Shown one piece after another: positions 18,191-38,547 of a DNA stretch of 38,681 nucleotides; position 1 is the first letter of the stretch; each line of letters starts with the position of its first letter. The position numbers and the translations under genes were made by a program. The DNA is taken from the NCBI GenBank assembly GCA_036517475.1, contig DATDVZ010000008.1:1-38681 (forward strand), written 5' to 3'. The stretch is from Minisyncoccota bacterium (GTDB taxonomy: Bacteria > Patescibacteriota > Minisyncoccia > Phycocordibacterales > Zambryskibacteraceae). A model generated the notes under the pieces. The model searched no databases, was not told the origin of the DNA, and worked only from the letters and a program-made list of their open reading frames with translations.

Positions 18191-18215
18191 CACTTGGACA
18201 TCGAATGTCCAAGTG
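18191..18215. repeat. REP-like hairpin left of the RAYT gene
   Basis: CACTTGGACAT-cga-ATGTCCAAGTG. Confidence 0.85.
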
Positions 18216-18230
18216 AGTTATAATAAATAT

Positions 18231-18878
18231 ATGAGAAAGACACCGCTAGTTACTGGGGAATTTTACCATGTATATAACCGGGGAGTAGATAAAAGGAAAA
18301 TATTTAATAATCATTATGATTTAGAAAGATTTCTCCAAAGCATGGAGGAATTTAATTCTGTTGAACCAATTGGAAGTATTTACGAAAATTCTTACGTAAA
18401 AAATAACAAGAAAACTCAACTTGGACATCGAATGTCCAAGTTAGAACTTGTTGAATTTATAACTTATTGCCTGAATCAAAATCACTATCATCTTTTATTG
18501 AGACAAAAAGCGGAAAAAGGTATTGAAAGATTTATGCAGAAGCTTGGAAACGGATATACAAAATTTTTTAACAACAAATATAAAAGATCAGGAGTTCTTT
18601 TTCAAGGAAGTTTCAAATCAATTCACGTTGAGTCTAATGAATATCTTCTGCATTTAAGTGCTTATATTAATCTAAATAACAAGCAAAAAAACAACAAAAC
18701 ATTAAGTAAAAGCAGTTGGGAAGAATACACAGAAGATTATCAAAACCGAGTTTGCAAAACCGAAATTATTCTTGATCAGTTTAAAAATAAAAAAGATTAT
18801 AAATCATTCGCAGAATCATCTTTAGAAGATATAATTGTCAGAAAAAAAATGTTGGATGAATTGGAAGAACTTGAATAA
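18231..18878 (+). mobile_element. IS200-like / REP-associated HUH Y1 tyrosine transposase (RAYT-like)
   Basis: FYHVYNRGVDKRKIF, HUH motif NHYHLLL, LFQGSFKS, YINLN; flanked by inverted REPs. ATG 18231 preferred over GTG 18213. Confidence 0.9.
18418..18442. repeat. REP-like hairpin inside the RAYT coding sequence
   Basis: AACTTGGACAT-cga-ATGTCCAAGTT, read in-frame as QLGHRMSKL. Confidence 0.85.
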
Positions 18879-18889
18879 GCAACTGGTTT

Positions 18890-18912
18890 ACTTGGACATT
18901 CGATGTCCAAGT
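18890..18912. repeat. REP-like hairpin right of the RAYT gene (inverted orientation)
   Basis: ACTTGGACAT-tcg-ATGTCCAAGT; the loop is the reverse complement of the left copy's loop. Confidence 0.85.
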
Positions 18913-19633: not shown

Positions 19634-20935
19634 ATGCAGCAAAGTAAGTTCCAACTCATATTAATAGGTGTATTTACGGTATTTATAGTTATTGGGGTAA
19701 TTCTTTTTGCCATGTCAGGCAGAGGATCAAGCTCTAAAATCGCAAGACTGACCGTCTGGGGCACAATGCAGCAGCCGATTTTTCTTAATATTTACGATCA
19801 GTCCTCGCTTTCAAAAAATAAAAATATAGCAATTACTTATGTAGAGAAATCTCCGAATACATTTGATTCTGAGTTTGTGAATGCTTTGGCTGAAGGCAGA
19901 GGCCCTGATATTATATTTTTAACTCACGATTCTTTACTTAAGAACACGAATAGACTCATAGTTATCCCTTATGACAGCTATTCCGAAAGAACTTTCAAGG
20001 ACACCTTTGTTGAGGAAGGGGAGCTATTTTTAACTCCGTCGGGTATTCTTGCCCTACCTATAACAATTGATCCTCTGATTATGTACTGGAATAGGGATAT
20101 TTTTACAAGTGCTGGAATTGCAGAGCCCCCAGCATTCTGGGATGAATTCTTCAAGCTTTCACAAAACCTCACTCTTAAAGATGGAGCATTTAATATTAAA
20201 AGATCAACAATTGCACTTGGTGAATACAGCAACATTAATAATGCTAAGGAAATCTTCTCGGCTTTGCTAATGCAGGCAGGCACTCCGATAGTTGCTAGAG
20301 TGAACGGCATTCCCACAAGTCTTTTAAGCGAGAAATTTAATCTTCCTATACAACCGGCAACATCTGCGCTTTCTTTCTATACTGAGTTTTCAAATCCAAG
20401 CAAACCGCATTATTCCTGGAACCGCTCCCGTCCGAATTCAGTCGACGCGTTTCTTGTTGGTGATCTGGCGGTGTATTTTGGTTTAGCATCAGAGCTTCCA
20501 AAACTTAAACTCAAAAATCCGAACTTGAATTTTGATATTAAAGCCCTGCCGCAATCAAGTAATGTGAGAACTGGAGAGAGAAAAGTTACTTTTGGAAGGA
20601 TGTTGGGGGCGGCAATTGTCAGAAATTCCACCAAAGTCAGCCCGGCATTTGCTGCAATACTTGAATTTTCCAGTGCCAATTTTTCAAAACGATTTGCTGA
20701 AGTTAACTCTGTGTCGCCGGCCCGCAGGGACTTGCTTTCTCAATATCAAGCTGATGCTTTTAAGCCGGTGGTCTACAGCTCGGCACTTTCTGCTAAGGCG
20801 TGGCTTGATCCGGATTACGCAGGAACTTCTTCAATTTTTGAGAATCTGATAGAGTCTGTTACTGGCGGACGACTTAAAATGGAGGCAGCTATAACTGGAG
20901 CAAACTCCTCAATTACTCAATTGCTAAGAAAATAA
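19634..20935 (+). CDS. membrane-anchored extracellular solute-binding protein (ABC carbohydrate-type fold)
   Basis: N-terminal TM helix, LTVWG, ALAEGRGPDI, LIMYWNRDIF, FLVGDLAVYFG. Confidence 0.8.
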   Translation: MQQSKFQLILIGVFTVFIVIGVILFAMSGRGSSSKIARLTVWGTMQQPIFLNIYDQSSLSKNKNIAITYVEKSPNTFDSEFVNALAEGRGPDIIFLTHDSLLKNTNRLIVIPYDSYSERTFKDTFVEEGELFLTPSGILALPITIDPLIMYWNRDIFTSAGIAEPPAFWDEFFKLSQNLTLKDGAFNIKRSTIALGEYSNINNAKEIFSALLMQAGTPIVARVNGIPTSLLSEKFNLPIQPATSALSFYTEFSNPSKPHYSWNRSRPNSVDAFLVGDLAVYFGLASELPKLKLKNPNLNFDIKALPQSSNVRTGERKVTFGRMLGAAIVRNSTKVSPAFAAILEFSSANFSKRFAEVNSVSPARRDLLSQYQADAFKPVVYSSALSAKAWLDPDYAGTSSIFENLIESVTGGRLKMEAAITGANSSITQLLRK

Positions 20936-21345
20936 TGAAATTAAATTTTTTTATAAATATATTTGTTCATCTGCTGGTTTTTTGTATTTTAATTTTACCC
21001 CTGTCATCTATTGCTCAAGATACTAATTTGATTGTCTGCGATCCTAAACAACCAAATGCAAATAATTTGCCGGACTGCGGATTTAATCAGCTTATACAAC
21101 TTGGAATAAATTTAATAAATTTTCTCATTGTTCTAGCTGTGCCTCTTGCCGCAATCTCTTTTGTCTGGGCTGGGGTGCTGCTTCTAACTTCAGGTGGGAG
21201 CGAATCAGCAAGGGATAAGGCAAAAACGGTTGCTACAAAGACTGGCTGGGGTCTTATAATAGTTATCGGAGCTTGGGTAATAGTTAAGACTATACTTGTG
21301 GTTCTACTCGGGGATGATTCGGGTTATTCACTTCTAACATTTTAG
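20935..21345 (+). CDS. TrbC/VirB2-like pilin 1
   Basis: Signal peptide plus two hydrophobic helices around GSESARDKAK. Confidence 0.75.
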   Translation: MKLNFFINIFVHLLVFCILILPLSSIAQDTNLIVCDPKQPNANNLPDCGFNQLIQLGINLINFLIVLAVPLAAISFVWAGVLLLTSGGSESARDKAKTVATKTGWGLIIVIGAWVIVKTILVVLLGDDSGYSLLTF

Positions 21346-21348
21346 AAT

Positions 21349-21846
21349 ATGAAAATATCTACTAAAATAAATAGCATGAAGATTAATTCCTTATCAGCAA
21401 TACTGGTAATTTTAATATTATTTGTAGTATTTCCCTACACTGCAAGTGCCGCTTGCCCGCAAGGTTATATTGAAAGAGACGGAACATGCTGGCTTCAAGA
21501 CATAAATGTAGAAGGCCAAAATGATCCGGGGCCTGATGCAGAAGGAAGTAATAGGGGTTGTCCTGCCAACACTATCTGTATAGATAATCCAGTAAGCGGA
21601 GAAGATACTCTGGAGGGATTTATTAATTTGATTATTAGAAACATCATAATGCCAGTAGGGGGGGTTATTGCTGTTGTATTTATAATTTACTCTGGTTTTC
21701 TTTTTGCTACTGCAAGAGGTAGTGAAGAAAAAATCAAAACTGCCAAGAGAGCATTTCTTTATGCTGTAATTGGGGCTCTCATATTGCTAGGGGCAATGGT
21801 TATATCGGAGGCCATAAAGGGAACTATTGATCAAATAAGAACTTAA
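21349..21846 (+). CDS. TrbC/VirB2-like pilin 2
   Basis: Signal peptide, Cys-containing N-domain, ARGSEEKIKTAK between TM helices. Confidence 0.75.
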   Translation: MKISTKINSMKINSLSAILVILILFVVFPYTASAACPQGYIERDGTCWLQDINVEGQNDPGPDAEGSNRGCPANTICIDNPVSGEDTLEGFINLIIRNIIMPVGGVIAVVFIIYSGFLFATARGSEEKIKTAKRAFLYAVIGALILLGAMVISEAIKGTIDQIRT

Positions 21847-22233
21847 ATGTTTTATAAAAAAATTAGTCTGTCTGCATTTTTTATTCTAGTTCTGATTTTT
21901 GCGCCCCTTTCAATTGCTAATGCGGCTCCGATTTGTGAATTTAGTTATCCGCCAACCGAACCTCAAAATTTTAAGGATTTTACATGCGTCCTCATAAATG
22001 GAATAAGTATGCTCGTTCCGGTAATTATAGGTCTCACACTTATTATTTTTCTCTGGGGACTGGCAAGATTCATCTGGGCTGGGGGAGACGAAGAAAAAAT
22101 AAAATCCGGCAAATCTCTCATGTTCTGGGGAATTGTCGGGCTGTTTGTAATGGTTTCAGTCTGGGGGATTATAAATATTTTATACGGAAGCTTTTTTAGC
22201 GGAGGCATCAGGTTGCCGCTTTTAAGACAATAA
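21847..22233 (+). CDS. TrbC/VirB2-like pilin 3
   Basis: AGGDEEKIKSGKSLMFWGIVGLFVMVSVWGII. Confidence 0.8.
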   Translation: MFYKKISLSAFFILVLIFAPLSIANAAPICEFSYPPTEPQNFKDFTCVLINGISMLVPVIIGLTLIIFLWGLARFIWAGGDEEKIKSGKSLMFWGIVGLFVMVSVWGIINILYGSFFSGGIRLPLLRQ

Positions 22234-22245
22234 AAAAATAATTTT

Positions 22246-22548
22246 ATGAATGTTATAGGTCAAATTTGTCCAGCTATTCTAGGTTCACCAGTTGCAAGGC
22301 TTCAGGATCTGATACTTAAAATTAGCTGCTTAATTGGTCCTTTAATCAATGTTCTTATTGGTTTGGGTTTGGTATTTTTTCTCTGGAATCTGGCAGTATT
22401 TATTCTTAAAGCCGGCGATGAGGAAGCAAGAAAAAATGCAAAAAAAATGATGTTTTGGGGGATTTTAGCCATTTTCATAATGGTTTCAATCTGGGGGATA
22501 ATAAAAATACTTCAAGGGGAATTTGGCATTGAGGCTGTTAGTTTTTAG
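22246..22548 (+). CDS. TrbC/VirB2-like pilin 4
   Basis: AGDEEARKNAKKMMFWGILAIFIMVSIWGII. Confidence 0.8.
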   Translation: MNVIGQICPAILGSPVARLQDLILKISCLIGPLINVLIGLGLVFFLWNLAVFILKAGDEEARKNAKKMMFWGILAIFIMVSIWGIIKILQGEFGIEAVSF

Positions 22549-22577
22549 TTTTAATTTGGCTATATTTTTTGGAAATT

Positions 22578-22617
22578 ACTTGGACATCCGATGTCCTTGG
22601 ACATCGGATGTCCAAGT
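22578..22617. repeat. REPIN-like inverted doublet of the RAYT-associated REP
   Basis: ACTTGGACATCCGATGTCC-tt-GGACATCGGATGTCCAAGT, 19 bp perfect arms. Confidence 0.85.
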
Positions 22618-22707
22618 GGGTGGTACTATCCACAACGACTAGAATTTTGGCTAAAAGATGCTATTATTTATTAATACCCAAAGGTATTAATAATTAATTA
22701 TTAGTTT

Positions 22708-23073
22708 ATGAAAATGAAAAAATTAGTCTTGATTTCTGGCGGTATCACAGCTGCCCTTTTGCCTGTAATGGCATTTGCTCAGCAATTTACATATGCTTCC
22801 TCGTTTCTTACAACGTTGAGCAATCTTATCAATCAGGCAACACCTATAATTATAGGGCTGGCTTTACTTTTCTTCCTTTACGGTTTGATGACATTTATTC
22901 TTGCTGCGGGAGATGAGGAAAAGAGCAAGAAGGGTAAGAAAATCATGGTATGGGGCATTGTTGCTCTGTTTATCATGGTTTCAATCTGGGGAATTATCCG
23001 ATTGCTCCAGACAAATACCGGTGTTCCGGGTGATGTTAATGCTCCGACGGTGCCAAGACCCCCAACAGGCTAA
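22708..23073 (+). CDS. TrbC/VirB2-like pilin 5
   Basis: Signal peptide ending MAFA; AGDEEKSKKGKKIMVWGIVALFIMVSIWGII. Confidence 0.8.
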   Translation: MKMKKLVLISGGITAALLPVMAFAQQFTYASSFLTTLSNLINQATPIIIGLALLFFLYGLMTFILAAGDEEKSKKGKKIMVWGIVALFIMVSIWGIIRLLQTNTGVPGDVNAPTVPRPPTG

Positions 23074-23084
23074 TTCTCTAAGGC

Positions 23085-23357
23085 ATGAATGGGTACACTG
23101 TTGAACCGCTACTACGCAAAATAAACGCGGCAATATTAAATCCGCTTATAACCTTACTTTTTGCAATTGCGCTTTTGTATTTTCTATACGGAGTTTTTCA
23201 GTTTGTGAGAAAAACAGATGACACTAAGGCAATGGAAGAAGGAAAACAGGCTATGCTGTGGGGGATAATCGGAATGTTTATAATGTTTGCAGTTGCCGGT
23301 ATCATTGGTGTTGTTCTTAATACGTTTGGAATAAGCACTGACTATCTTCCATTCTAG
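23085..23357 (+). CDS. TrbC/VirB2-like pilin 6
   Basis: TDDTKAMEEGKQAMLWGIIGMFIM between TM helices. Confidence 0.75.
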   Translation: MNGYTVEPLLRKINAAILNPLITLLFAIALLYFLYGVFQFVRKTDDTKAMEEGKQAMLWGIIGMFIMFAVAGIIGVVLNTFGISTDYLPF

Positions 23358-27840: not shown

Positions 27841-28020
27841 ATGACAGTTCCTCCGTTTTTGAACCCGGATTAACGCTCTGGTTGGCGGCAAGTCTCCGAA
27901 TGAGACAAGCTCTCCAACGTCGAGTTATTCGACGGCAAAGAGCTTGTCTCAGATTCAAATGATTGAAAAGATCTATGCTGTGGTGATCCTACAATAGCTT
28001 ATTGTTTTGTCAAGGTAAGT

Positions 28021-28169
28021 AAATAAATTTGTTTTATTAGTATGGGTGGGAGAGGACTTGATTCTTACAGAATCTGTACATCTTTCGCATTCTCCGCCAA
28101 TTGGCGGATCATATATGCTCAAGGTCTTCAAGTCCTCTCGCGAGAACAAATAAATTTGTTTTCTCCTTA
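28021..28169 (-). repeat. tRNA-Leu(TAG) 3'-associated structured element with a duplicated tRNA 3' end
   Basis: Direct repeat 28021-28061 vs 28148-28188 (127 bp period); inverted T-arm copy at 28127-28139. Confidence 0.8.
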
Positions 28170-28250
28170 TGGGCGGGAGAGGACTTGAACCTCCACTCCT
28201 TGCGGAACTAGCTCCTAAGGCTAGCGCGTCTGCCATTTCGCCACCCGCCC
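28170..28250 (-). tRNA. tRNA-Leu(TAG)
   Basis: Acceptor GGGCGGG/CCCGCCC, anticodon arm CTAGC-CTTAGGA-GCTAG, long variable arm, T-loop TTCAAGT; CCA not encoded. Confidence 0.95.
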
Positions 28251-28385
28251 ACCAAATATGAAGGGTTAAATCTGCCACTTGCCCCTTATGAAATCGATCA
28301 CTTGTGATCGTAATTTCATTTTGGGTTTTGTCACCCGCTTGTAAGAAAGAATACTATAACATTTTGAAATATAAAAAAGATCCGT

Positions 28386-28664
28386 TTAGGATCTTTTGGC
28401 TTTTAGGATCATTGTTCTGGTCCCAAGAAAATGTGTGGCAACATTTTTTCTAGGGATACTGAGTCTGTCTACTTCTTGCAAGAGAGCTTTCATACTCTTA
28501 GCTAAAGCTACTGATCTGCCATTATGGAATGCAACATACTGGTTAGGAAACTTTTTTTGAAGTCTTCTTAACTGCGCATCCATTGATCTAACGTTTGCAC
28601 TAAATGATCTTAATTCTCTTGCGACTTGAGACGGATTATCTATAAGATCCTTAAGTCGGTGCAT
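28386..28664 (-). CDS. small protein resembling the DUF5678 family
   Basis: KKFPNQYVAFHNGRSVALAKSMKALLQEV pattern, recalled family resemblance only. Confidence 0.6.
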   Translation of the reverse strand: MHRLKDLIDNPSQVARELRSFSANVRSMDAQLRRLQKKFPNQYVAFHNGRSVALAKSMKALLQEVDRLSIPRKNVATHFLGTRTMILKAKRS

Positions 28665-28770
28665 TTTTTCTCCCGGAGATTTCTAGGTTAAAAGTATTAA
28701 AAATTGTAACTAAAGTCAATTTGAAATCTTGATAAACCTCAACTTTTTTCGTATTCTTTAAACCTGAATT

Positions 28771-28792
28771 TTATGGCCACGTAGCCAAGTAG
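28771..28792 (+). repeat. duplicated 5' end of tRNA-Cys
   Basis: TTATGGCCACGTAGCCAAGTAG is identical to 28877-28898. Confidence 0.85.
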
Positions 28793-28880
28793 CATGAGCG
28801 TAGCGAATTATAAAAAAGCCAGCAAGCTGCTCAAGGTTAGTATTGTGGTAGGATTTTGTTGATTGTAATAAGTTAATTAT

Positions 28881-28955
28881 GGCCACGTAGCCAAGTAGTA
28901 AGGCAGCTCTCTGCAAAAGAGCTACACGCGAGTGCGATTCTCGCCGTGGCCTCCA
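28881..28955 (+). tRNA. tRNA-Cys(GCA)
   Basis: Acceptor GGCCACG/CGTGGCC, GCTCT-CTGCAAA-AGAGC, U discriminator, encoded CCA; variant T-loop TGCGATT. Confidence 0.9.
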
Positions 28956-29087
28956 GGCAACGGAGCAAGCAAATTGATTTGCTTGCGTCGAGAATCGCAG
29001 GCCGGAATATCTTGCCACAGGCAAGAATGAGGCGGGGTCGCGAGTTTGCATTGCAAAACTTGTGACCGATTCTCGCCGTGGCCTCCA
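28956..29087 (+). repeat. tRNA-Cys 3'-associated structured element
   Basis: 22 bp direct repeat 28935-28956 = 29067-29088 (132 bp period); inverted T-arm copy at 28989-28999. Confidence 0.85.
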
Positions 29088-29168
29088 GCCCGAGTGGTGG
29101 AATGGTTTACACGCACGACTTAAAATCGTGTGCCGCAAGGCATGTGAGTTCGAGTCTCACCTCGGGCA
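29088..29168 (+). tRNA. tRNA-Leu(TAA)
   Basis: Acceptor GCCCGAG/CTCGGGC, CACGA-CTTAAAA-TCGTG, long variable arm, T-loop TTCGAGT. Confidence 0.95.
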
Positions 29169-29171
29169 TTT

Positions 29172-29476
29172 CCGCCCATAGCTCAGCTGGTCCCGTACCA
29201 AAACCTTTTAAAAGGAATTTAATTTGTATAATATTGTATTTTATGTAATTTTCCGTCCCTGTGTCCACCCATAGCTCAGGCTGGTAGAGCAGTTGCCTCT
29301 TAAGCAAACGGTCGCAGGTTCGAATCCTGCTGGGTGGACACAGGGACGGCAACAAAAAATTATTTAGATAAATTTGGTACGGGATATATGCCGCAGTTGC
29401 GTCCCTGCCCCGTAGCAAGCTTCGCTTTGCTTCGGGGTTAAGCAAACGGTCGCAGGTTCGAATCCTGCTGGGCGGA
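29172..29476 (+). pseudogene. interrupted outer tRNA-Lys scaffold enclosing the intact tRNA-Lys
   Basis: 5' part CCGCCCATAGCTCAGCTGGT (29172-29191) and 3' part (29438-29476) have mutually complementary acceptor arms CCGCCCA/TGGGCGG. Confidence 0.65.
29265..29338 (+). tRNA. tRNA-Lys(CTT)
   Basis: Acceptor CCACCCA/TGGGTGG, GTTGC-CTCTTAA-GCAAA, GCAGG-TTCGAAT-CCTGC. Confidence 0.9.
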
Positions 29477-29610
29477 TATGATAGAAAAATAAGAATTGCT
29501 TCATATTTTTCGGTACATATCCGAGACGGAGCCATGTTTTTGCAGCTGCAAAAACAGGCGAGTCGGGGTCGCGGAAATTTCGTTTTAACGAAAACGAAAT
29601 TATCTGTGAC
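29473..29610 (+). repeat. structured element related to the tRNA-Cys element
   Basis: CGGATATG/CATATCCG stem, 22 bp palindrome at 29535-29556, GGGGTCGCG (29565-29573), hairpin, TGTGAC (29605-29610). Confidence 0.6.
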
Positions 29611-29621
29611 GATAAAAAATA

Positions 29622-29951
29622 TTATTGATTAGAAATTTCCTCAATTCTTTGGCGGTTTTTTTCTCCGACATCAAGGGTAAACTTCACTTCGGGCATCCTG
29701 CCAATTCTGGCATGAGTATCAACAAAACTCATGAAAACTCTTTTATTTAGATCCAAAAATTTTTTTACTGCATTCTCTTCGCTTTCCGGCAAGACTGTGT
29801 ATAAAATATCAACGCTTTGCTGGTTGGAGCTTATATGGGCTCCAGTAACTGTTATTAAAGAGGAAAAGTTCCACTCCCTTTCAATAAATTCTGCCGCTAA
29901 GCGCTTTAAGAGTTCCGGCAATTTTTCTTTTCTATATGAAGTGTGACGCAT
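29622..29951 (-). CDS. rbfA: ribosome-binding factor A
   Basis: Follows infB; LITVTGAHIS...DILYTV...RMPEVKFTLD. Confidence 0.85.
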   Translation of the reverse strand: MRHTSYRKEKLPELLKRLAAEFIEREWNFSSLITVTGAHISSNQQSVDILYTVLPESEENAVKKFLDLNKRVFMSFVDTHARIGRMPEVKFTLDVGEKNRQRIEEISNQ

Positions 29952-29978
29952 CTAAAAGTTAAAAGTTAAAAGTGGCTA

Positions 29979-31478
29979 TTATTTATTTACTATTATGAAT
30001 GATTCAATCTTATCGCCGGAGGCAATTTCAATTTTTGATTCTATTTTTGCTCCAAATTCATTACCCTCCTCAACTGTGCTGGTTTTATTTTTTTGCATCT
30101 GAAGTTCGCGGATTCTGCCCATTCCGATTTCAGTCTCGCGCCTCCAAATCTTTACCGGCTCATTAACAGATATTTTCCCGCTTTCAACTTTTCCCCCGAC
30201 TATCTGCTTGTCTTTTGTGCTGCTGAAAAATTTTAAAATCTTTGCTTTTCCTGTGACTTCTTCCTGTAGAACTGTGGGAGTGCGGGCCTTTAATTCATCT
30301 TGGAGCCACTCTGTCATCTTATAGATAATGTTAAAAGTATTGATTTTTATTCCGAGTCTTTCAGAAAGAGACTGCGCCTGTTTCTGCGTTTCAGTGTTAA
30401 AGGCGATAACTATTGCAGAATTGCTCTCGGCAGTTCTTATGTCATTTTCAGAAATGGGTCCGAGGCCGGTAAGGGTGATCTTAGCTTCAATCTTTTCATT
30501 GGCAAGTTTTTCTATCTCATATAGTAGAGCATCTAGACTACCTGTCGTATCTGCTTTAATGACAATTGGAATTTTTGCTCTCTCATTTTTCTCCGGCACT
30601 TTTTCTGGTTTTTTTTCTGACTTAGATTCAGAAATTGCCTGCAAAGAATCTGGTTTACTTGAAAAAATTTTTATTTGACTTCCAACTTCCGGGACAGAGT
30701 CCCATCCGATGATTCTAACTGGAGAAGAGAATGTGGCGCTATCTATATTTTGCCCACGGAAATCTTCCAACATACGCAAGGGAGAAAATGATTTACCACA
30801 GACAGCAAATCCGCCCTTTTTTAAAGTCCCGTTTGTAATTATGGCTGTGGCGACAATGCCTTTTCTGGTATCCAGATGACTTTCTATTATTACGCCTTCT
30901 GCATCTGCCTCTGGATCGGCTTTCAATTCTTCAAGCTCCGCAGTCAATAAAATAAGATCCAAAAGTTCAGGAATGCCAACTCCAGTTTTAGCAGAAATTG
31001 CCACCCATGAAATATGGCCACCATAACCTTCCAAGTAAACATCGTTTTTTGCCAGACTTTGTTTCGTTTTCTCAATATTAGCCTGAGGTTTATCAATTTT
31101 ATTTATTGCAACAATAAATGGCATTTTTTCTTCGTTAAAAATTTTTATTGCCTCCTGCGTCTGTGGCATAACTGCATCTTCAGCTGAGACAACCAGTATC
31201 CCAATATCAGCCACGCGAGCGCCTCGCGAGCGTATTGCTTTGAATGACTCATGCCCTGGAGTATCAAGAAATGTAATTTTTTGACTTTTTCCTTCTTTTT
31301 GATGTATTACTTCATAGGCTCCGATATGCTGGGTAATGCCACCGACCTCCATGTCGACAATATTAGTCTTTCGGATGTAATCAAGAAGAGTTGATTTCCC
31401 ATGATCAATATGCCCCATAATTACAATTATGGGGGGGCGTTCGATTAGATTTCCTTTTTTGTTAATTGTTTTCTGCAT
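29979..31478 (-). CDS. infB: translation initiation factor IF-2 (short, no N-terminal extension)
   Basis: [43 protein letters not shown]. Confidence 0.97.
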
Positions 31479-31947
31479 TTAATAATTTCTCTTTAGAATT
31501 ATTGATTACTAGTTTCTCCTCGTCTGTCAGCTCAAAATCAGAAGAGAATTTTTTGACTGGTTTGGAAAAAATACTTGTCTGATCTCTATAACTCATGCTT
31601 GAGGTTACTACTCCGTCGCCCTTCTCGTTTAGAATTGCTGTAGAAAAACTATTATTTCCTCCCGATCCTGTGCCCTTGAAAGGGTTGAATCTTATGGTCT
31701 CCACTGCTTGAACAGAGCGTTTCAATCTTCTTTCAACCGATTTGAAATACTTCGTGGATTCATCTCTGAAGCGCGAAATATCATCCAAAGTAATCCTTAG
31801 GTTTACAATTGCTTCCTCCAGACTTTTGCCATCCTTGCCAGAAAAAAATTTTCTTAGTCTATACTCAATCCTTATGAATAAAAGGATAAGGATGATGTCT
31901 AATCCGATAAGTGCATAAATTATTATTTGAGAATCAATTTGAGGCAT
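31462..31947 (-). CDS. DUF4446-like membrane-anchored protein
   Basis: N-terminal TM helix; TIRFNPFKGTGSGGNNSFSTAILNEKGDGVV. Confidence 0.7.
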   Translation of the reverse strand: MPQIDSQIIIYALIGLDIILILLFIRIEYRLRKFFSGKDGKSLEEAIVNLRITLDDISRFRDESTKYFKSVERRLKRSVQAVETIRFNPFKGTGSGGNNSFSTAILNEKGDGVVTSSMSYRDQTSIFSKPVKKFSSDFELTDEEKLVINNSKEKLLNAENN

Positions 31948-32099
31948 AAAATCAGGAATGGTTTGTAATTATATATCTATTTTCATTTTTTTGAAAATCA
32001 TTTTTTCTGTTATATTTTTAAGAAATTTGTTAGGGTTTACCCTGTTAAATCCCGCAAAGCAGAAATTCCGCAAGTAGAATTACTTAGCGAGGTTAAAAA

Positions 32100-33296
32100 G
32101 TGAAAAAACAAGAAAAAATTTTTATGGATCATGCTTCAACAACTCCCGTATTACTGGAGGTTTTTTCTGCAATGAAGCCTTTCCTTATGAACAAATTTTT
32201 TAATTCACAAGCTATATATGAAAGGGGGGTTGATGTTAATAAAGCGACTGAAAATGCTCGAGAGAAAATTGCAAAAATACTTAATTCTCATAGCGATGAA
32301 ATTGTATTTACCGGAAGCGGTACTGAGTCTGATAACTTGGCCTTGTTTGGAGTTATTGAAGATGCTTGGAAGAAATTTAAAAAACCTCATATGATTGTCA
32401 GTTCTTTCGAGCATCCCGCGATTTTAGAAGCTGCCAAGAAAATTCAAAAATATGGTGGGGAAATTACTTATCTTGGTCCTGATCATGATGGAATAATTCA
32501 ACCTGCTCTGTTAAAAAAATTTCTGAAGCAAAACACGGTTTTGGTTTCAATAATGTATGCAAACAATGAAATTGGGGTAATCCAGCCAATTCGTGAAATT
32601 GCAAAAGTTATCCGCGATTTTAAAAAAAATCGGCTTGCCCGCAAAAATTTTGCAAGGCAAAATTTCGGCGGGCCCTACTTTCATACTGACGCAACTGCCG
32701 CAGCAAACTATTTGTCATTAAATACTCTTGAGCTACATGTTGATTTGATGACTCTAGATAGCTCTAAAATCTATGGTCCTAAAGGGGTCGGGGCACTTTT
32801 CAGAAGAAGAGGAACTCCTATTGAGCCGCAAATAGTAGGTGGAGGGCAGGAAGGAGGAGTTCGTTCAGGGACAGAAAATGTTGCAGGAATTGTCGCCTTT
32901 GCCAAAGCTCTCTTTATCGTTCAATCTGATAGAGAAAAAGAATCAAAGAGGTTAACAAAATTGCGAGATTATGCTATTAGTGAAATTAAAAGAACATATA
33001 AGCACGCAAAATTAAATGGGTCTTTTGGCAATAGGTTGCCCAACAATATTAATTTTTGTTTTCCTGGTTTGGACTCTGAATTTGCAGTAATAAAATTGGA
33101 TACATTGGGGATTGAGTGTTCTTCAGCAAGCACGTGCAAAAGCATGTCAGAAACTACTAATTCCTACGTCATTGAGGCGATTGGAAATGGTGGGTGTGCC
33201 GAGTCTAGTTTGCGTTTCACGTTTGGAAGAAGTACGACAAAAAACGAAGTTAAAAAAATGTTACTGGCTCTTAAAAAAGTATTGAAAAATATTTAA
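32100..33296 (+). CDS. iscS: cysteine desulfurase (IscS/NifS family, PLP)
   Basis: MDHASTTP, FTGSGTESDN, FEHPAIL, SKIYGPKG (PLP Lys), SSASTCKS (catalytic Cys), LRFTFG. Confidence 0.88.
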   Translation: MKKQEKIFMDHASTTPVLLEVFSAMKPFLMNKFFNSQAIYERGVDVNKATENAREKIAKILNSHSDEIVFTGSGTESDNLALFGVIEDAWKKFKKPHMIVSSFEHPAILEAAKKIQKYGGEITYLGPDHDGIIQPALLKKFLKQNTVLVSIMYANNEIGVIQPIREIAKVIRDFKKNRLARKNFARQNFGGPYFHTDATAAANYLSLNTLELHVDLMTLDSSKIYGPKGVGALFRRRGTPIEPQIVGGGQEGGVRSGTENVAGIVAFAKALFIVQSDREKESKRLTKLRDYAISEIKRTYKHAKLNGSFGNRLPNNINFCFPGLDSEFAVIKLDTLGIECSSASTCKSMSETTNSYVIEAIGNGGCAESSLRFTFGRSTTKNEVKKMLLALKKVLKNI

Positions 33297-33385
33297 ATTT
33301 AGTTATAATTTTTACATATGTCCCGCCAGTATCAGAGCCCAGCAGGGCTGTGCGAGAGTACCTCGGGGCAGTAATTTCTAACGGT

Positions 33386-34204
33386 ATGGAGGATTTGAAT
33401 AAAACACAATTAATTCTACTCACTCTTTTGGTGAGTTTCATGACGTCAATTGCGACGGGTATTATTACTGTGTCGTTACTTCAGGAGGCGCCCCAAAGCG
33501 TGACTCAGACCATAAACCGCGTCGTGGAGAGAACAATTGAGCAAGTGGCGCCAGCAACGGGCAGCACCGAAATCAAGACCAAGGAGGTGGTAGTGGTAAA
33601 GGAGGAGGACTTGGTAATTGATGCGATTAACAAAAACTCAAAGAGTCTTGTCAGAATCAGAGATAATGCGCTTGTCAACGGAGTTTCACCTTTTTATGCA
33701 ATCGGCATTCTCCTTAATAAGGACGGAATCGTGCTCTCTGATAGAAGGGAAAATATTTCAAATACAACAACATATACAGCCACACTCTCTGATGGGACAT
33801 CTTTCCTTATGAAAGTGACAGCAATTGATGATAATGCCGGAATAGTATTTTTTACAATTGTTAAGAATCCAAAGGTTCAAATTGGGGCTGAAGGAGCGAT
33901 ATTTGCCGATAAGGATCTGCAGTTGGGGCAATCGGTTATTGCTATAGAGGGCGAGGAAAAAAATGTTGTTTCAACCGGAAGGGTAATTTCATTCAATTAT
34001 TCTGATTCCGAACAAAAAAATATTTCAATTGTGGAGACTGATATCAATCCAAAAACTTTCACTTTCGGAGGCCCGCTTGTAAATCTATCAGGGGAAATAG
34101 TTGGTTTGAGGTCATCCAAACAGGCTTCTTTAAGTGGTGGTGAATCTTATGTATCATTAAACCTTATTAAATCTTCAATGTCAGCAAATAATATTAAAAA
34201 GTAG
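33386..34204 (+). CDS. membrane-anchored trypsin-like (HtrA/S1C fold) protein, probably catalytically dead
   Basis: MEDLNKTQLILL TM anchor; GGPLVNLSGEIVG C-terminal motif, but Phe at the catalytic Ser position. ATG 33386 preferred. Confidence 0.75.
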   Translation: MEDLNKTQLILLTLLVSFMTSIATGIITVSLLQEAPQSVTQTINRVVERTIEQVAPATGSTEIKTKEVVVVKEEDLVIDAINKNSKSLVRIRDNALVNGVSPFYAIGILLNKDGIVLSDRRENISNTTTYTATLSDGTSFLMKVTAIDDNAGIVFFTIVKNPKVQIGAEGAIFADKDLQLGQSVIAIEGEEKNVVSTGRVISFNYSDSEQKNISIVETDINPKTFTFGGPLVNLSGEIVGLRSSKQASLSGGESYVSLNLIKSSMSANNIKK

Positions 34205-34252
34205 AATTATATTCATCTTGATTTTTGATTTTTAAATTTTAATATAGCGATT

Positions 34253-36946
34253 ATGCCTCCATTTAATCAATTCACAACAAAGGCGAAAGAAGCGATAAAA
34301 AGAGCCCATGAGCTTGCTATTGAACGTGGCCAAAATCATGTAAATCCGATGCATTTACTGGCAGCTCTTATCATGCAGGATGAATCCGTGGTTACCTCGA
34401 TTTTTGATAAACTTGATATTGATACAATACTTCTGACTGATCATATACTTGAGTCAATTGAATCTCATGATGGGTCTTCAACCATGACGCCCTCGTATCA
34501 GATTTTTATAACACCCGAGCTTGCCCAGATTATTGAAGGCAGCATCAAAGTCGCCCAAGGTTTGAATGATGAATTTGCCTCGACCGAGCATCTTTTCATA
34601 TCAATTTTGGAAATGCCCGGCCCCGCAAGAGATTTACTTTCACGATTTAAAATTGACAAACAGACCGTAATGCGCGTTTTGGAGGAACTGCGCTCAAGTA
34701 ATGTTCATGTTGGTAAAGAATCAAAAAAACTCAAATCCCTATTAAAGTACACAAGAAGTCTTACCAAACTTGCATCGCAAAACAAACTTGACCCCGTTAT
34801 TGGTAGGGATATTGAAATTTCCCGCATTATTCAGATTCTTTCGCGCAGAACAAAAAATAATCCGATCCTAATTGGTGAGGCTGGGGTAGGAAAAACGGCA
34901 ATAGTCGAAGGGCTGGCCCAAAGAATGGCAGGAGGCAACGTTCCTGAATCCCTCAAGGAAAAAGAGCTCGTTATGCTTGATTTGGGGCTTTTGATTGCAG
35001 GAACAAAATACAGGGGGGAATTTGAAGAAAGACTCAAGAATATACTGAAGGAGATTGAACGTTCAGAAGGAAAAATAGTTCTTTTTATTGATGAGATTCA
35101 CACAATTGTAGGCGCCGGAGCGGCGGAAGGCGCACTGGACGCTTCTAATATGTTAAAACCTGCTCTGGCCAGAGGGGAGCTGCGCGCAATTGGTGCAACA
35201 ACTCTCAAAGAATATCAAAAACATATTGAGAAGGACCCGGCTCTGACAAGGCGTTTTCAACCGGTTTATGTCAATGAACCTTCAATTGAAGATGCAATTA
35301 CAATATTGCGCGGCTTGAAGGAAAAATATGAGCTTTATCATGGTGTCAGAATCACAGATGATTCGATCGTGTCTGCTGTGAACCTTTCTACCAGATATAT
35401 AACCGACAGATTTCTGCCGGATAAGGCGGTGGATTTAATTGATGAAGCGGCCTCACAACTTAAGATCTCACTTGAGAACATGCCGCCAATACTTGAAGAA
35501 ACGCACTCTAAAATCATGAAGCTGGAAATTGAAAGAGAGGCGCTTAAAAGAGAAATAAATACTGAAAATAAAAGCCCAAAGACAAAAGCAAGAATTAAAG
35601 AAATTGAGAAAGAGATTGCTGATCTTAGAGAAAAAACCTCAGAAGTTGAGCTTAAGTGGAAAAATGAAAAGGAGACTGTAACAGATATAAAAACAATTAA
35701 AAAGGAATTGGAAACTATGAGGCTGGAGGCTGAGGCGGCTGAAGCTCGCTCTGATTTATCTTCAGCCGCAGAAATCAGATATGGAAAAATTCCAAATCTG
35801 GTAAAGGATTTGGAAACAAAGACTAAAAGATTAAAACGTCTTCAGAGTTCACGCAGGATTCTAAAAGAAGAAATTATGGATGCAGATATTGCGGATGTAG
35901 TGTCTCGATGGACAAGTATTCCAGTTTCACGAATGCTTGAAGAGGAAGCAGAAAAACTTTCCCGTATGGAAGAATTTCTCCAGAAAAGAATTGTGGGTCA
36001 GGATGAGGCGGTTAAAAATATTTCTGACACAGTAAAAAGAAGCCGCGCAGGCATTGCAGATCCCAACCGACCAATTGGCTCTTTTATCTTCCTTGGGCCA
36101 ACCGGTGTAGGCAAAACTGAGCTAACCAAGGCTCTGGCGGAATTTATGTTTGATGATGAAAGGGCTCTCATCAGGGTAGATATGTCTGAATTTATGGAAA
36201 GGCACTCTGTTTCAAAGCTTATCGGGGCACCACCTGGGTATGTCGGATTTGAAGAGGGGGGGCAGTTTACAGAAACTGTTCGCCACAGACCTTACTCTGT
36301 AATTCTTTTTGACGAGATTGAGAAAGCCCATCCGGAAGTATTTAACATTCTGCTTCAGGTACTTGATAATGGAAGATTAACTGATGCCAAGGGCAGAGTG
36401 GTGAACTTTAAGAATACAATTATCATTATGACCTCCAATATTGGTGCTCAATATATTGATAAGATGGAGAAGATAGGCTTTGCGGAAAATAATGCTGATC
36501 AACAAAATTACGAAGATGCAAAAACAAAAGTGATGGAAACCCTGCGAGAGCAATTCCGTCCGGAATTTCTCAATCGTCTTGATGACATAATCATATTTAA
36601 TATACTCTCTCCTAAAGCAGTTAAGAAAATCGTTCTACTACAGGTAGATCAGGTTATGAAGCGTCTCGCACAAAAAGAGATCTCACTTGAACTGACTCCG
36701 GCTGCTCTCGACTATCTTGCTAAGGATGGTTATAACCCGCAGTACGGGGCAAGACCTCTAAAGCGCTTGATTCAAACTAAGATTTTAAATCCTGTTGCAA
36801 GTATGATGATTTCAAAAGATGTTGTTAAAGGTGGGGTAGTATCAGTTGGTGTGAAAGGCGGAGAATTGACTTTTGAGGTTAAAAAAGGAAGAAAGGGGAG
36901 TCTGTGGACACAGAGTGTAATTGAAACAAAACAAAAAACTAAATAA
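34253..36946 (+). CDS. clpB: ATP-dependent chaperone ClpB
   Basis: Clp N-domain, two AAA+ modules ([16 protein letters not shown]), coiled-coil middle domain, YGARPLKR. Confidence 0.9.
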
Positions 36947-36964
36947 CAAAATTTAAGTCTGGAT

Positions 36965-38233
36965 ATGAATAAAAAAAATATTTTTATCTGGACACTGTAT
37001 GATTTTGCAAACTCAATAGTATCAATTGTTTTTTATTTGCATTTCTCGCAATGGCTTGTAATTGATAAAGGGGTAAGTGATTTTTGGTATAACATGATTT
37101 TTACTATTGGCTCGGTCCTTTTATTACTCACTGCTCCAATACTAGGAAGCATCGCTGATAGAACAGGTAGACAGCAAAAATATCTAAACAGTATTACTAT
37201 TATTACTTTTTTTTGTTTTTTAGGAGCTTCCATCGTAACCCTCTTTTTGTCAGACAAATTTTTCTTGGCCGCACTATTTTTCTTACTAGCAAATTATTTT
37301 TATCAATTTTCCTTTGTTTTTTACAACGCGTTATTATCTTATATTGCACCGAAAGAAAATTGGGGAAAAGTCTCAGGTATAGGCCAAGCCGGCAATTGGC
37401 TTGGGCAAATTGCCGGCCTTGCTGTTACTTTACCGCTTGCAGGCGGGGCCGTTTATCTAATAGGCGAGGTTGGCCGGGCGCAGGCTTTCCTTCCTTCAGT
37501 AATAATATTTTTTATTCTAGCTATTCCAATGCTTATATTCTTTAAGTTACCAAAGAAGGAATATGTGCCAATTCGAATAAATCTTAAAGAAGAATATAAA
37601 ATTCAATGGAATAAATTTAGAGATTTGATCAGTGACGTCAATATGAAATATTTTCTATTAGCATATTTCTTTTTTAACGATGCTATTATCACAGTAGCAA
37701 ATAATTTTCCAATCTATTTACAAAATGTATTTGAAATCAATGACAAGACAAAAACAATGATACTGGGTGGGGCACTGATCACTTCGGTCTTTGGTGCTTA
37801 TTTTTCAGGCATTATCGCTGACAAAATTGGATTGAAAAAAACACTGAAGTTTGTATTGGGTATCTGGGTAATTTTTCTCCCTTTATTAGGAATAATTAAC
37901 AACCTCAATATATTTATTGGTTTATGTATTATTTATGGTTTTATTTTTGGTTCAATTTGGACAATTACCAGAGCAGCAATGACTGCTCTTACACCTAAAG
38001 AAAAATTAAACTACGGATTTAGCTTCTACACGTTAGCCGAGCGAGTTTCTACTTTTATTGGCCCACTTTCATGGGGGCTAATAACACTTCTTTTGGCAAG
38101 CCTTGGAGCAGTTCGGTACCGAGTTGCAATGATTGTAATGGCGATTTTTATAGCAATTGGTCTTTATTTAATAAAAAAAGTAAAAATTTCTGAACATAAG
38201 GAAAATGAACTCAGGGCAAGTTTAACTAGATAG
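36965..38233 (+). CDS. MFS transporter (UMF1/Atg22-like)
   Basis: About 12 TM helices; WTLYDFANS, GSIADRTG, GKVSGIG. Confidence 0.88.
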   Translation: MNKKNIFIWTLYDFANSIVSIVFYLHFSQWLVIDKGVSDFWYNMIFTIGSVLLLLTAPILGSIADRTGRQQKYLNSITIITFFCFLGASIVTLFLSDKFFLAALFFLLANYFYQFSFVFYNALLSYIAPKENWGKVSGIGQAGNWLGQIAGLAVTLPLAGGAVYLIGEVGRAQAFLPSVIIFFILAIPMLIFFKLPKKEYVPIRINLKEEYKIQWNKFRDLISDVNMKYFLLAYFFFNDAIITVANNFPIYLQNVFEINDKTKTMILGGALITSVFGAYFSGIIADKIGLKKTLKFVLGIWVIFLPLLGIINNLNIFIGLCIIYGFIFGSIWTITRAAMTALTPKEKLNYGFSFYTLAERVSTFIGPLSWGLITLLLASLGAVRYRVAMIVMAIFIAIGLYLIKKVKISEHKENELRASLTR

Positions 38234-38273
38234 TACTGGAAATCAGTCTTAAAAGTTGGTAAATTTATGATCT

Positions 38274-38356
38274 GCGTCGGTGGTAGAGTGGACAATTACA
38301 ACAGACTGTAAATCTGTCGCCTTCGGGCTTCGTTGGTTCGAATCCAACCCGGCGCA
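38274..38356 (+). tRNA. tRNA-Tyr(GTA)
   Basis: Acceptor GCGTCGG/CCGGCGC, ACAGA-CTGTAAA-TCTGT, long variable arm, T-loop TTCGAAT. Confidence 0.95.
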
Positions 38357-38360
38357 CAAA

Positions 38361-38547
38361 ACAAATATTCGAGCCTTACGCTCGCTAATTTTGTTTTGCT
38401 GAATCATGGGTGGGATTCGAACAGGAAGAGGGTCGGAGAAACTCTAGTTTCTCCGTGAAGGAAAACAGCGAGCTAAGCGAGCGTTAGAAACCGTGGGTTT
38501 CTAAAGAGCGACGCAGTCGCGAGTGAGATTCCAACCCGGCGCACAAA
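38361..38547 (+). repeat. tRNA-Tyr 3'-associated structured element
   Basis: 18 bp direct repeat 38343-38360 = 38530-38547 (187 bp period); inverted T-arm copy at 38408-38422. Confidence 0.85.

Follow-up and report, generated by a model that had tools for sequence, protein, structure and literature searches.

Why are several transfer RNA (tRNA) genes in a 38,681-nucleotide (nt) stretch of a Minisyncoccota bacterium genome followed by short non-coding cassettes that repeat parts of the same tRNA gene in both direct and inverted orientation? This stretch (GCA_036517475.1, contig DATDVZ010000008.1, positions 1-38,681 of the forward strand) is referred to here as the window, and all window coordinates refer to it. 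An earlier note on this DNA had proposed that the cassettes are either non-autonomous elements or a folding or processing switch of the precursor tRNA (pre-tRNA). We find that these tRNA-anchored cassettes are members of a large family of inserts without coding sequence that occupy tRNA 3' trailers in Paceibacteria. Both proposals are still the two leading explanations, and the evidence favours the former. ARAGORN and Rfam agree on five tRNA genes in the window, four of which carry cassettes or nested copies; the cassette types are described below:

28169-28251, minus strand: tRNA-Leu(TAG), host of a type C cassette (ARAGORN; Rfam tRNA, 57.6 bits)
28881-28955, plus strand: tRNA-Cys with an encoded CCA, host of a type B cassette (ARAGORN and Rfam)
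29088-29168, plus strand: tRNA-Leu(TAA), without a cassette (ARAGORN and Rfam)
29265-29339, plus strand: tRNA-Lys(CTT), inside a 194-bp unit (ARAGORN and Rfam)
38274-38357, plus strand: tRNA-Tyr, host of a type D cassette (ARAGORN and Rfam)

We denote by X the tRNA segment that runs from T55 or C56 to the discriminator base or CCA, and by rc-X its inverted copy. The parts of a cassette then follow one another in the order tRNA (ending in X), hairpin, rc-X, module, and X, where the hairpin is either a recurrent one termed hp1 or a terminator-like stem. The claim that tRNA-Leu(TAG), tRNA-Cys and tRNA-Tyr are each followed by a cassette with this same order was reproduced by a repeat finder, which returned direct repeats with periods of 127 nt for Leu (28021-28061 and 28148-28188; 41 nt, 88% identity), 132 nt for Cys (28935-28956 and 29067-29088; 22 nt, 100%) and 187 nt for Tyr (38340-38360 and 38527-38547; 21 nt, 95%). 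The inverted copy of the T-arm is likewise present, with lengths of 16, 14 and 15 nt as compared with the claimed 13, 11 and 15 nt, but its exact nature is that of a complement of the T-stem 3' strand together with the T-loop and, depending on the cassette, some of the acceptor 3' strand. For example, the window tRNA-Leu(TAG) has a G49·T65 pair, and its cassette carries AGAGG, the complement of the 3' strand, and not GGAGG, the sequence of the 5' strand. The individual parts of the three cassettes are as follows:

28142-28165, minus strand: first hairpin of the Leu cassette, hp1-like, GAGAAAACAAATTTATTTGTTCTC (RNA fold)
28127-28142, minus strand: Leu rc-X, consisting of the T-loop, the T-stem 3' strand and 4 nt of the acceptor stem (16 nt, 94% complementary)
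28062-28126, minus strand: Leu module C, two hairpins, ending in GTACAGATTCTGTAAGAA (fold z = -5.6; homologous cassettes in relatives)
28021-28061, minus strand: Leu distal direct copy and repeated trailer up to the hp1 loop (41-nt repeat)
28956-28999, plus strand: left part of the Cys cassette, with a near-copy of the acceptor 5' strand (GGCAACGG), hp1 and rc-X (repeat finder, motif scan)
29000-29066, plus strand: Cys module B, CCGGA - hairpin - GAGGCGGGGTCGCG - hairpin - TGTGAC (covariance model R1, 53 bits, E = 2.5e-9)
29067-29087, plus strand: Cys distal copy, exact, from C56 to CCA, adjoining tRNA-Leu(TAA) (22 nt, 100%)
38358-38397, plus strand: terminator-like hairpin directly 3' of tRNA-Tyr (fold)
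38408-38422, plus strand: Tyr rc-X, from G53 through the T-loop and the T-stem 3' strand to the start of the acceptor stem (15 nt, 93%)
38423-38526, plus strand: Tyr module D, GAAGAGGGT - hairpin - TGAAGGAAA - hairpins - GTGAGA (comparison with locus L067)
38527-38547, plus strand: distal direct copy of the tRNA-Tyr 3' end (21 nt, 95%)

The Cys cassette spans exactly CCA to CCA between two tRNA genes. Its left part contains the only hp1 of the window (28965-28986) and an inverted T-arm copy at 28986-28999 (14 nt, 93%), and the loop of the hp1-like Leu hairpin, AAATTTATTT, is identical to the hp1 loop of type A cassettes. Module C has homologues in cassettes at Leu(CAA), Leu(TAG) and Tyr in relatives (L002, L009, L047). 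The tRNA-end copy within the Leu distal repeat (28041-28061) has the allele CCCACCC as compared with CCCGCCC in the intact tRNA, and it is followed by a promoter-like TTGACA, an element that lies directly 3' of the tRNA at empty sites of relatives. The distal X is usually an exact copy of the host tRNA end, and rc-X tracks the difference between TTCGA and TTCAA loops of the host tRNA. In types A and B, rc-X is split by hp1 into an anti-acceptor part and an anti-T part. According to the repeat finder, rc-X is complementary to both copies of X, so it could pair with either, and this complementarity is specific for the cognate tRNA. No protein is encoded inside the cassettes.

Two further observations concern the sequence around these cassettes. 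About 20-35 nt upstream of tRNA-Leu(TAG), on the minus strand (28271-28285), lies GGGGCAAGTGGCAGA, which resembles the 5' part of the tRNA-Leu allele seen in L002 and L069 (GGGCAAGTGGC) and is possibly a 5'-side remnant. In addition, the hairpin-tip motif GAGCGNAGCGA(A/G) recurs in variable hairpins, both in the window (28796-28807 and 38476-38487) and in L063, L014 and L038. This motif contains GCGNAGC between GA and GA, and d(GCGAAGC)-type sequences form unusually stable mini-hairpins.

As a control for chance, each 200-nt downstream region was subjected to 500 dinucleotide shuffles. The inverted copies exceed these shuffled controls, since the observed inverted run was reached by 0 (Leu), 2 (Cys) and 0 (Tyr) of the 500 shuffles, and the direct run was reached by none in all three cases. 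The cassette-free tRNA-Leu(TAA) is indistinguishable from its own shuffles. We then used initiation factor IF-2 as an anchor for an unbiased set that consists of 80 infB loci from related GTDB genomes plus the window; the 80 loci belong to Paceibacteria/Nomurabacteria and share only about 55% IF-2 identity. The last 20 nt of the tRNA are repeated with at least 19 of 20 matches 90-160 nt downstream for 19 of 311 tRNAs, while upstream regions never score above 16 of 20. When the 3'-end copy is defined by at least 16 of 18 matches, 23 of 298 tRNAs (about 8%) have one downstream. Between the tRNA and its copy, an inverted T-loop/T-stem copy with at least 9 of 12 matches is found in 21 of these 23, as compared with 16% of copy-less tRNAs and 7% of upstream controls. 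The layout is therefore enriched at other tRNAs and in other genomes, both in the infB-anchored set and in a motif scan for type A cassettes. The shuffles and the comparison of upstream with downstream regions rule out a chance origin, and the cassette layout is confirmed as real and non-random.

The inserts fall into sequence families that are common to different tRNAs and genomes. The earlier note's description of one architecture with a tRNA-specific sequence holds for at least four module types, A to D, and at least 15 tRNA identities. Type A has the order hp1 - rc-X - GAAAGG - variable hairpin - CACCTGGCTATGTAATAGC - X. Type B, represented by the window Cys cassette, reads CCGGAG - hairpin - GAGGCGGGGTCGCG - hairpin - TGTGAC - X in its right part, and type C, represented by the window Leu cassette, ends in GTACNGANNCTGTAAGNN - X. 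Type D rests on two examples, the window Tyr cassette and a tRNA-Lys cassette in L067, which have 73% column identity with their tRNA-specific parts exchanged; a strict type D pattern scan of GTDB genomes returned the L067 genome only. The types found in the window (B, C and D) all recur behind other tRNAs.

Type A is the type for which the largest sample is available. A 19-nt type A motif occurs in 90 stretches in GTDB genomes, nearly all of them Paceibacteria, and in the 76 context windows it is preceded, 41-216 nt upstream, by a tRNA gene on the same strand, with at least 15 tRNA identities represented. The next 18-21 nt match the host tRNA from C56 to its end within 2 mismatches in 56 of 71 cases, and the distal X is decayed in 15 of the 71. 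Of 70 type A cassettes, 50 have a distal X that matches perfectly (18/18), which points to a recent origin of this copy. rc-X matches the cognate tRNA at 10.3 of 12 positions and non-cognate tRNAs at 8.1 of 12; it is perfect in only 12 of 70 cassettes and shows a recurrent mismatch near T-loop positions 59-60. The anti-acceptor part and the tRNA end often form a long perfect palindrome across the terminator hairpin (L092, L167, L082). Even the shortest cassette, at 41 nt, still has parts of module A. For module B, a covariance model gave 33 matches in 1.27 Mb, almost all of which are adjacent to a tRNA gene and on its strand.

The family appears to be undescribed in Rfam 15 and in the searchable literature. 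In Rfam 15, self-cleaving ribozyme models included, only the tRNAs reached the gathering threshold, and only weak chance matches were returned at E ≤ 10; nor did we recognise a described family of insertion sequence (IS) ends. The Leu cassette (28049-28199, minus strand) scored 21.9 bits against the Clostridiales-1 RNA (threshold 48, E = 0.05), and we treated this match as chance. A literature search, whose coverage excluded most subscription journals, found no description of such cassettes.

Minimum free energy (MFE) folds of the tRNA-sense strand consist of an outer helix between the anti-acceptor part and the acceptor 3' strand, hp1, an inner helix between the anti-T part and the T part of X, and the module hairpins inside. 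In these predicted folds, pairing of rc-X with X would close the insert into a three-way structure resembling the acceptor/T-arm half of the host tRNA. The Cys fold has a 7-bp acceptor-like stem with a free UCCA tail and a z-score of -5.8; the z-scores are -5.6 for Leu and only -1.9 for Tyr. Covariation, which the earlier note had suggested looking for, is found in the stems of both type A and module B. In type A (31 sequences), 96.9% of cells are paired and 15 of 29 pairs are compensated, a result that was equalled by 0 of 500 shuffles and approached by no slid register. In module B (25 sequences), 97.6% are paired and 13 of 17 pairs are compensated, again with 0 of 500 shuffles. Judging from these compensatory changes in aligned sequences, the structure is under selection.

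A tally of G·U versus A·C pairs gave about 29 versus about 9 in type A, with a conserved U·G at columns 97-113 omitted, and about 41 versus about 4 in module B, where one G·U is present in 24 of 25 sequences. This excess of G·U pairs is on the tRNA-sense strand, and therefore the tRNA-sense strand is the strand that folds. Such a result is expected of an RNA that is co-transcribed with the tRNA, and a sense-strand DNA intermediate is also compatible with it. A per-strand MFE test gave no strand difference and was superseded by the alignment-based pair counts. A hammerhead-like reading of the three-way junction was rejected by eye, since GAAA precedes the variable hairpin and does not follow it, and there is no CUGANGA.

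The earlier note had also proposed comparing empty with filled tRNA loci, and among relatives both states are seen at tRNA-Leu(TAG) and at tRNA-Lys. At empty Leu(TAG) loci, a TTGAC...TATACT promoter lies directly 3' of the tRNA (L022, L032, L033, L051, L061, L075, L079), whereas at filled loci the promoter lies after the distal copy (L018, L019, L059, L069 and the window). Therefore, the insert consists of the cassette plus one X. At tRNA-Lys, the next tRNA follows directly in some genomes and a module B element is present in about 20 others. Two near-identical tRNA-Leu(TAG) genes that are one base apart are followed by different types, type B in L057 and type A in L019. In L011, L112 and L160, identical units follow one another in tandem, and at 6 of about 70 type A loci X is followed by a second, partial unit. 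At three loci (window Leu, window Lys and L077), the allele of the intact tRNA differs from that of the distal fragment, and therefore some events may import a complete tRNA together with its cassette.

The tRNA-Lys locus of the window has a nested arrangement of its own, and a partial copy is also found on the 5' side of tRNA-Cys:

29171-29190, plus strand: outer 5' fragment of a displaced tRNA-Lys allele, CCGCCCA... (repeat finder; 5'-end copy 29171-29186)
29191-29384, plus strand: 194-bp unit with perfect 12-nt inverted repeats at 29191-29202 and 29373-29384 (repeat finder)
29408-29478, plus strand: hairpin (29408-29437) followed by the displaced tRNA-Lys 3' part (29438-29476) (39-nt repeat; fold)
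29519-29618, plus strand: stand-alone module B of a 'Lys flavour', ATCCGAG ... CTGTGAC-GAT (model R1, 78 bits, E = 3e-15; fold z = -7.1)
28771-28807, plus strand: 5'-side pseudo-copy of tRNA-Cys, exact for positions 1-18 plus a TTAT flank, with the D-loop insert CATGAGCGTAGCGAA (22-nt 100% repeat, 28771-28792)

The 194-bp unit holds an AT-rich promoter-like stretch and the intact tRNA-Lys(CTT), whose acceptor stem is lengthened to a 22-bp stem. The repeat finder gave a 39-nt direct repeat (97%) of this tRNA, starting in the anticodon loop, at 29438-29476. The outer 5' fragment, CCGCCCA, pairs with the outer 3' fragment, TGGGCGG, and not with the intact tRNA (CCACCCA/TGGGTGG). The displaced allele (29171-29478) is thus split twice, by the 194-bp unit in its D-loop and by the hairpin at 29408-29437 in its anticodon loop. 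In the stand-alone module B, the clamp ATC/GAT copies the last bases of the displaced tRNA-Lys (GAT); the flanking copies of this flavour are 3-8 nt, as compared with 18-21 nt elsewhere. About 20 genomes have an orthologue of the element in the corresponding place behind tRNA-Lys. Among these, the tRNA-Lys end, rc-X and X covary three ways: CAC/GTG/CAC, GAC/GTC/GAC and, in the window, GAT/ATC/GAT.

The 5'-half copy of tRNA-Cys lies 70-107 nt upstream of the tRNA; CATGAGCGTAGCGAA replaces its D-loop, its anticodon stem turns back at the loop TGCA, and an AT-rich promoter-like spacer follows. Such 5'-side copies are also present in at least 13 other genomes (L001, L013, L016, L019, L036, L040, L047, L051, L054, L057, L059, L061 and L078), where they match the genome's own tRNA, usually at 18 of 18 positions, despite deep divergence between genomes. 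The tRNA-Lys arrangement, the stand-alone module B, the 5'-side pseudo-copies and the Y1/HUH gene considered below had all gone unnoticed in the earlier note. With respect to gene order, the Cys-Leu(TAA)-Lys block (28881-29339) is inverted relative to infB-rbfA (29622-31478) as compared with most relatives, such as L003, while the orientation of tRNA-Leu(TAG) is kept; flipped cluster members are also seen in L002, L019, L036 and L054.

Given that the cassettes encode no protein, the question arises of which enzymes are available to move them. As the earlier note had stated, the window has no integrase: Pfam scans of 40 window open reading frames (ORFs) found none, and they gave no Cas1 either. 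The fetched loci (1.86 Mb) contain 91 pairs of tRNA 3'-end repeats, of which 89 lie within 300 nt of each other and none encloses an integrase; therefore, the cassettes are not trimmed islands. Autonomous versions were sought as 3'-end copies up to 12 kb downstream in 171 loci, which gave two pairs beyond 300 nt, one enclosing an ORF of 203 amino acids without a family match and the other a second tRNA. Exact-pattern scans of the 2.9 million viral contigs of IMG/VR for types A to D returned 0 matches for A and C. The matches for B (22) and D (3) were rejected since all fall within protein-coding sequence of phages that are unrelated and, for the most part, richer in G+C, with no tRNA nearby. 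The minus strand of L052 (3640-4461) contains a tRNA-Tyr, an insert of about 700 bp with a 203-amino-acid ORF of no Pfam family, and a nearly full second tRNA-Tyr. The first 6 nt of this second copy are missing, and its D-loop contains the hairpin GCCCCGCCATGGCGGGGTGAAG; a comparable D-loop hairpin is found upstream of tRNA-Tyr in L079.

The window does encode one protein of a transposase family:

18231-18878, plus strand: RAYT-like Y1/HUH transposase gene (Pfam Y1_Tnp, E = 7.5e-8; HUH and Tyr motifs)

This protein belongs to a very large family of Patescibacteria, with 2899 homologues, some of them named RayT by JGI, and no fewer than 576 loci in species representatives. The gene is flanked by the perfect 21-nt palindrome CTTGGACATCGAATGTCCAAG, about 20 nt upstream of the start and just downstream of the gene (18193-18911). 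The same palindrome occurs in frame inside the ORF, where it codes for LGHRMSK, and two more copies lie between pilin-like genes (22579-22616). CTTGG-N11-CCAAG is found at the same places in most of 80 homologous Patescibacteria loci (L171-L250), including one or two sites within the ORF, and the inner 4 bp show covariation between genomes. A second, distant Y1 homologue, with 27-35% identity to the window protein, is present at about 14-21.5 kb in L020, L022, L026, L033, L052, L058 and L075. In these seven loci, the distant homologues lie 6-8 kb from the tRNA cluster and show no clear association. Elsewhere in the window, six consecutive small ORFs (20935-23357; 90-165 amino acids), all T4SS_pilin/TrbC, form tandem paralogues after a solute-binding protein gene, and long perfect palindromes on ATACTATGATATATCATAGTAT (2382-2425 and 2866-2971) flank a Trp-repressor-like gene (2430-2840) and are possible operators.

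Our preferred, though tentative, reading is that of non-autonomous insertions for which base pairing selects the tRNA 3' end as target; their transcript would fold into a closed mimic of the tRNA top half. By this reading, rc-X would be the guide, pairing with the tRNA gene at its 3' end in the way that IS200/IS605 ends pair with their target, and insertion would leave an X on either side. Cutting and joining would be carried out by an enzyme acting in trans, for which the RAYT-like Y1 protein encoded at 18231-18878 is an unlinked candidate. The insert would be tolerated because rc-X in the transcript would pair with the distal X rather than with the tRNA, and the Cys insert, which runs from CCA to CCA, could be removed by ordinary tRNA end-processing. 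The enrichment, the modules shared across hosts, the empty and filled sites, the turnover, the tandem units and the apparently young distal X favour this reading, and so do the selection on structure, the sense-strand G·U excess, the Leu and Cys folds and the presence of a Y1/HUH gene in the window. Several points weigh against this reading. No enzyme is tied to the cassettes, the RAYT palindrome CTTGG-N11-CCAAG is absent from them, and their hairpins do not flank the RAYT gene. To our knowledge, known Y1 or DDE transposases do not leave a flanking duplication of 18-21 nt. Neither an excised or circular form nor an autonomous relative was found, and the exact-pattern scans of IMG/VR gave no true match. 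Ten contigs of strains of the same species are 99.8-100% identical over 27950-29650 and show no presence/absence polymorphism, and are thus uninformative on recent events. Where the two copies of X differ, rc-X agrees with the proximal copy (the real tRNA) at 63 positions and with the distal copy at 38, in a test made noisy by neighbouring tRNA genes and type-specific junction sequences; this lean fits an element that supplies the proximal copy better than one that carries the distal copy. The identical inner hairpins of two cassettes in one genome (L069) could be explained by gene conversion instead of transposition. Finally, the module B at tRNA-Lys, with its conserved position and three-way covariation, looks like a conserved functional RNA.

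This last point leads to the main rival explanation, which we consider possible but less probable, namely that the cassettes are cis-acting RNAs that serve the host within a polycistronic pre-tRNA. They might be processing or punctuation mimics, in which likeness to the tRNA top half would direct RNase P or RNase Z to a defined cleavage position beside the tRNA 3' end; a folding switch, in which rc-X pairs with either the tRNA 3' end or a decoy X; or the source of a stable spacer-derived small RNA. The strong covariation and the sense-strand G·U pairs, one of them in 24 of 25 module B sequences, are in line with such a role, as are the confinement of module B to the neighbourhood and strand of tRNAs (33 matches in 1.27 Mb), its orthology behind tRNA-Lys in about 20 genomes with three-way covariation, the CCA-to-CCA extent of the Cys cassette with its acceptor-like stem and UCCA tail, and the ability of rc-X to pair with either copy of X. 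However, a host function does not sit easily with a distribution as patchy as 23 of 298 tRNAs, with module types that differ behind the same tRNA between genomes, with many empty orthologous sites, with identical units in tandem, or with the decay of 15 of 71 type A distal copies, and a processing signal has no obvious need to copy host tRNA sequence. If, on the other hand, the cassettes are insertions, a more specific and rather doubtful form of that reading is that they represent a new kind of mobile element, a structured, coding-free unit of about 110-190 nt guided by base pairing, in which rc-X would be the guide for the 3' end of one tRNA, could be re-aimed, and would regenerate the target copy at the far end. 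To move it, a domesticated Y1/HUH enzyme would act on the element as folded single-stranded DNA, or else a reverse transcriptase would copy a tRNA-like RNA form that has an acceptor-like stem and a CCA-type tail.

Two further explanations dispense with a function of the cassettes or with guided insertion. In functionless template switching during replication, which we regard as unlikely, the polymerase would reverse direction first at the terminator or hp1 hairpin and a second time at the palindromic T-loop (TTCGAA), giving a direct-inverted-direct triplication. The modules would be hairpin elements of separate origin that reached the middle of the palindrome afterwards, by landing or by being copied there. 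This would account for the fact that rc-X complements the 3' strand and is not a copy of the 5' strand (window Leu), for the long perfect palindromes of tRNA end, terminator and inverted tRNA end in L092, L167, L082 and L051, for the terminator that is duplicated together with X in L053, for the 5'-side copies that fold back at the palindromic TGCA of the Cys anticodon loop, and for breakpoints that are always in loops. It leaves unexplained why unrelated tRNAs of many genomes share modules and hp1, why stems are maintained by compensatory change and why rc-X has a recurrent mismatch near positions 59-60, and we found no module-less direct-inverted-direct intermediates with T-loop breakpoints. 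The last and least probable explanation, that the cassettes are scars or attP-only mini-elements of tyrosine-integrase elements that integrate into tRNA genes, comparable to cis-mobilizable elements (CIMEs), takes up the likeness to attL/attR sites seen in the earlier note. That likeness stands for where the repeats start, which is the T-loop (Leu, Cys, Tyr) or the anticodon loop (Lys), reportedly the two classic crossover sublocations of tRNA-integrating integrases (Williams 2002). Likewise, the distal fragment is sometimes of another allele, as would be the case for a displaced resident end (window Leu, window Lys and L077). The likeness does not hold for everything else: neither the window nor any of the 91 repeat pairs in 1.86 Mb, of which 89 lie within 300 nt, supplies an integrase; the exact-pattern scans of 2.9 million viral contigs gave no true match; the distal site has no intact T-arm core; and the conserved parts are base-paired stems and not protein-binding sequence. 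Moreover, at loci with differing alleles, the acceptor 5' strand of the intact tRNA matches the proximal and not the distal 3' strand, which a simple T-loop crossover does not predict.

Comparison with known systems gives partial likenesses. IS200/IS605 elements and PATEs (palindrome-associated transposable elements) are, like the cassettes, small and hairpin-rich; the known ones act as single strands, and a Y1 enzyme is encoded in the window. In IS608, recognition of the left flank as well as of the right end relies on pairing with element-internal sequence. By analogy, the same internal-guide logic would apply to rc-X with the tRNA 3' end and the distal X. However, IS200/IS605 guides are 4-5 nt, as compared with 10-19 nt in the cassettes, and these elements are not known to leave a flanking duplication, whereas the cassettes are flanked by 18-21 nt (3-8 nt in the Lys flavour), lack two similar subterminal hairpins and have no linked transposase. 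REP/REPIN-RAYT systems likewise combine non-coding palindromic elements with a single-copy domesticated Y1 gene, and the window has such a gene with palindromes of its own; the cassettes differ in being tRNA-bound and not dispersed, in having host-tRNA-specific segments and in lacking the RAYT palindrome. With attL/attR sites and CIMEs, the cassettes share a direct repeat of the tRNA 3' part that starts in one of two loops, T or anticodon, and a resident fragment displaced to the far end, but they are 110-190 bp with no integrase near, and they have an inverted copy, covarying hairpins and a module shared across tRNAs. Integron attC sites and the attP hairpin of CTX phage resemble them as imperfect inverted repeats in which one strand folds into a copy of the double-stranded target, with structure conserved above sequence and with recurrent stem mismatches. 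The R''/R' sequences of attC (RYYYAAC ... GTTRRRY) are not matched, since, on visual inspection, position 4 of the T-loop GTTCGAA does not fit GTTRRRY, and the cassettes have neither cargo nor, by Pfam, an integrase in the window.

Casposons and CRISPR repeat duplication involve a flanking duplication of 14-48 bp, a preference for tRNA 3' ends in the case of casposons, and tandem growth beside a fixed leader-like sequence. Only the long duplication at a tRNA 3' end is alike, and the cassettes have no terminal inverted repeats. The lack of terminal inverted repeats also separates them from a DDE-type miniature inverted-repeat transposable element (MITE), as does a repeat length that varies with the tRNA segment; the 194-bp unit at tRNA-Lys has 12-bp inverted ends, yet it is a different object from the cassettes. 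On the RNA side, the E. coli 3'ETS-leuZ sponge and the mascRNA at the MALAT1 3' end are structured non-coding RNAs that arise from tRNA processing. They are co-transcribed with tRNAs or tRNA-shaped and freed by tRNA-processing enzymes, and the cassettes have what marks a structured cis-acting RNA, namely a conserved structure with compensatory changes on the tRNA-sense strand. Unlike the cassettes, these RNAs are not known to be insertion-polymorphic, to occur in tandem or to be built of inverted and direct copies of a neighbouring tRNA.

There is a fair chance that the cassettes are something more unusual than miniature non-autonomous elements or structured RNAs of tRNA spacers. They explain stray tRNA fragments that confuse both annotation and the island-finders that read partial tRNA repeats as att sites, and they yield covariance models for new RNA or DNA motifs (types A to D). 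Paceibacteria have some of the smallest bacterial genomes, with tRNA genes that are mostly single-copy, and yet cassettes or nested copies are found at four of the five tRNA genes of the window and at about 8% of the tRNAs in the infB-anchored set. If the cassettes are mobile, they would home to essential genes and still leave these intact, and their target recognition by base pairing, seemingly re-aimed from tRNA to tRNA, would bear on programmable insertion systems; the reverse-transcriptase route, if true, would make them a bacterial counterpart of tRNA-derived short interspersed nuclear elements (SINEs). If they are instead host RNAs, they would point to a so far unrecognised level of pre-tRNA processing within the Candidate Phyla Radiation.

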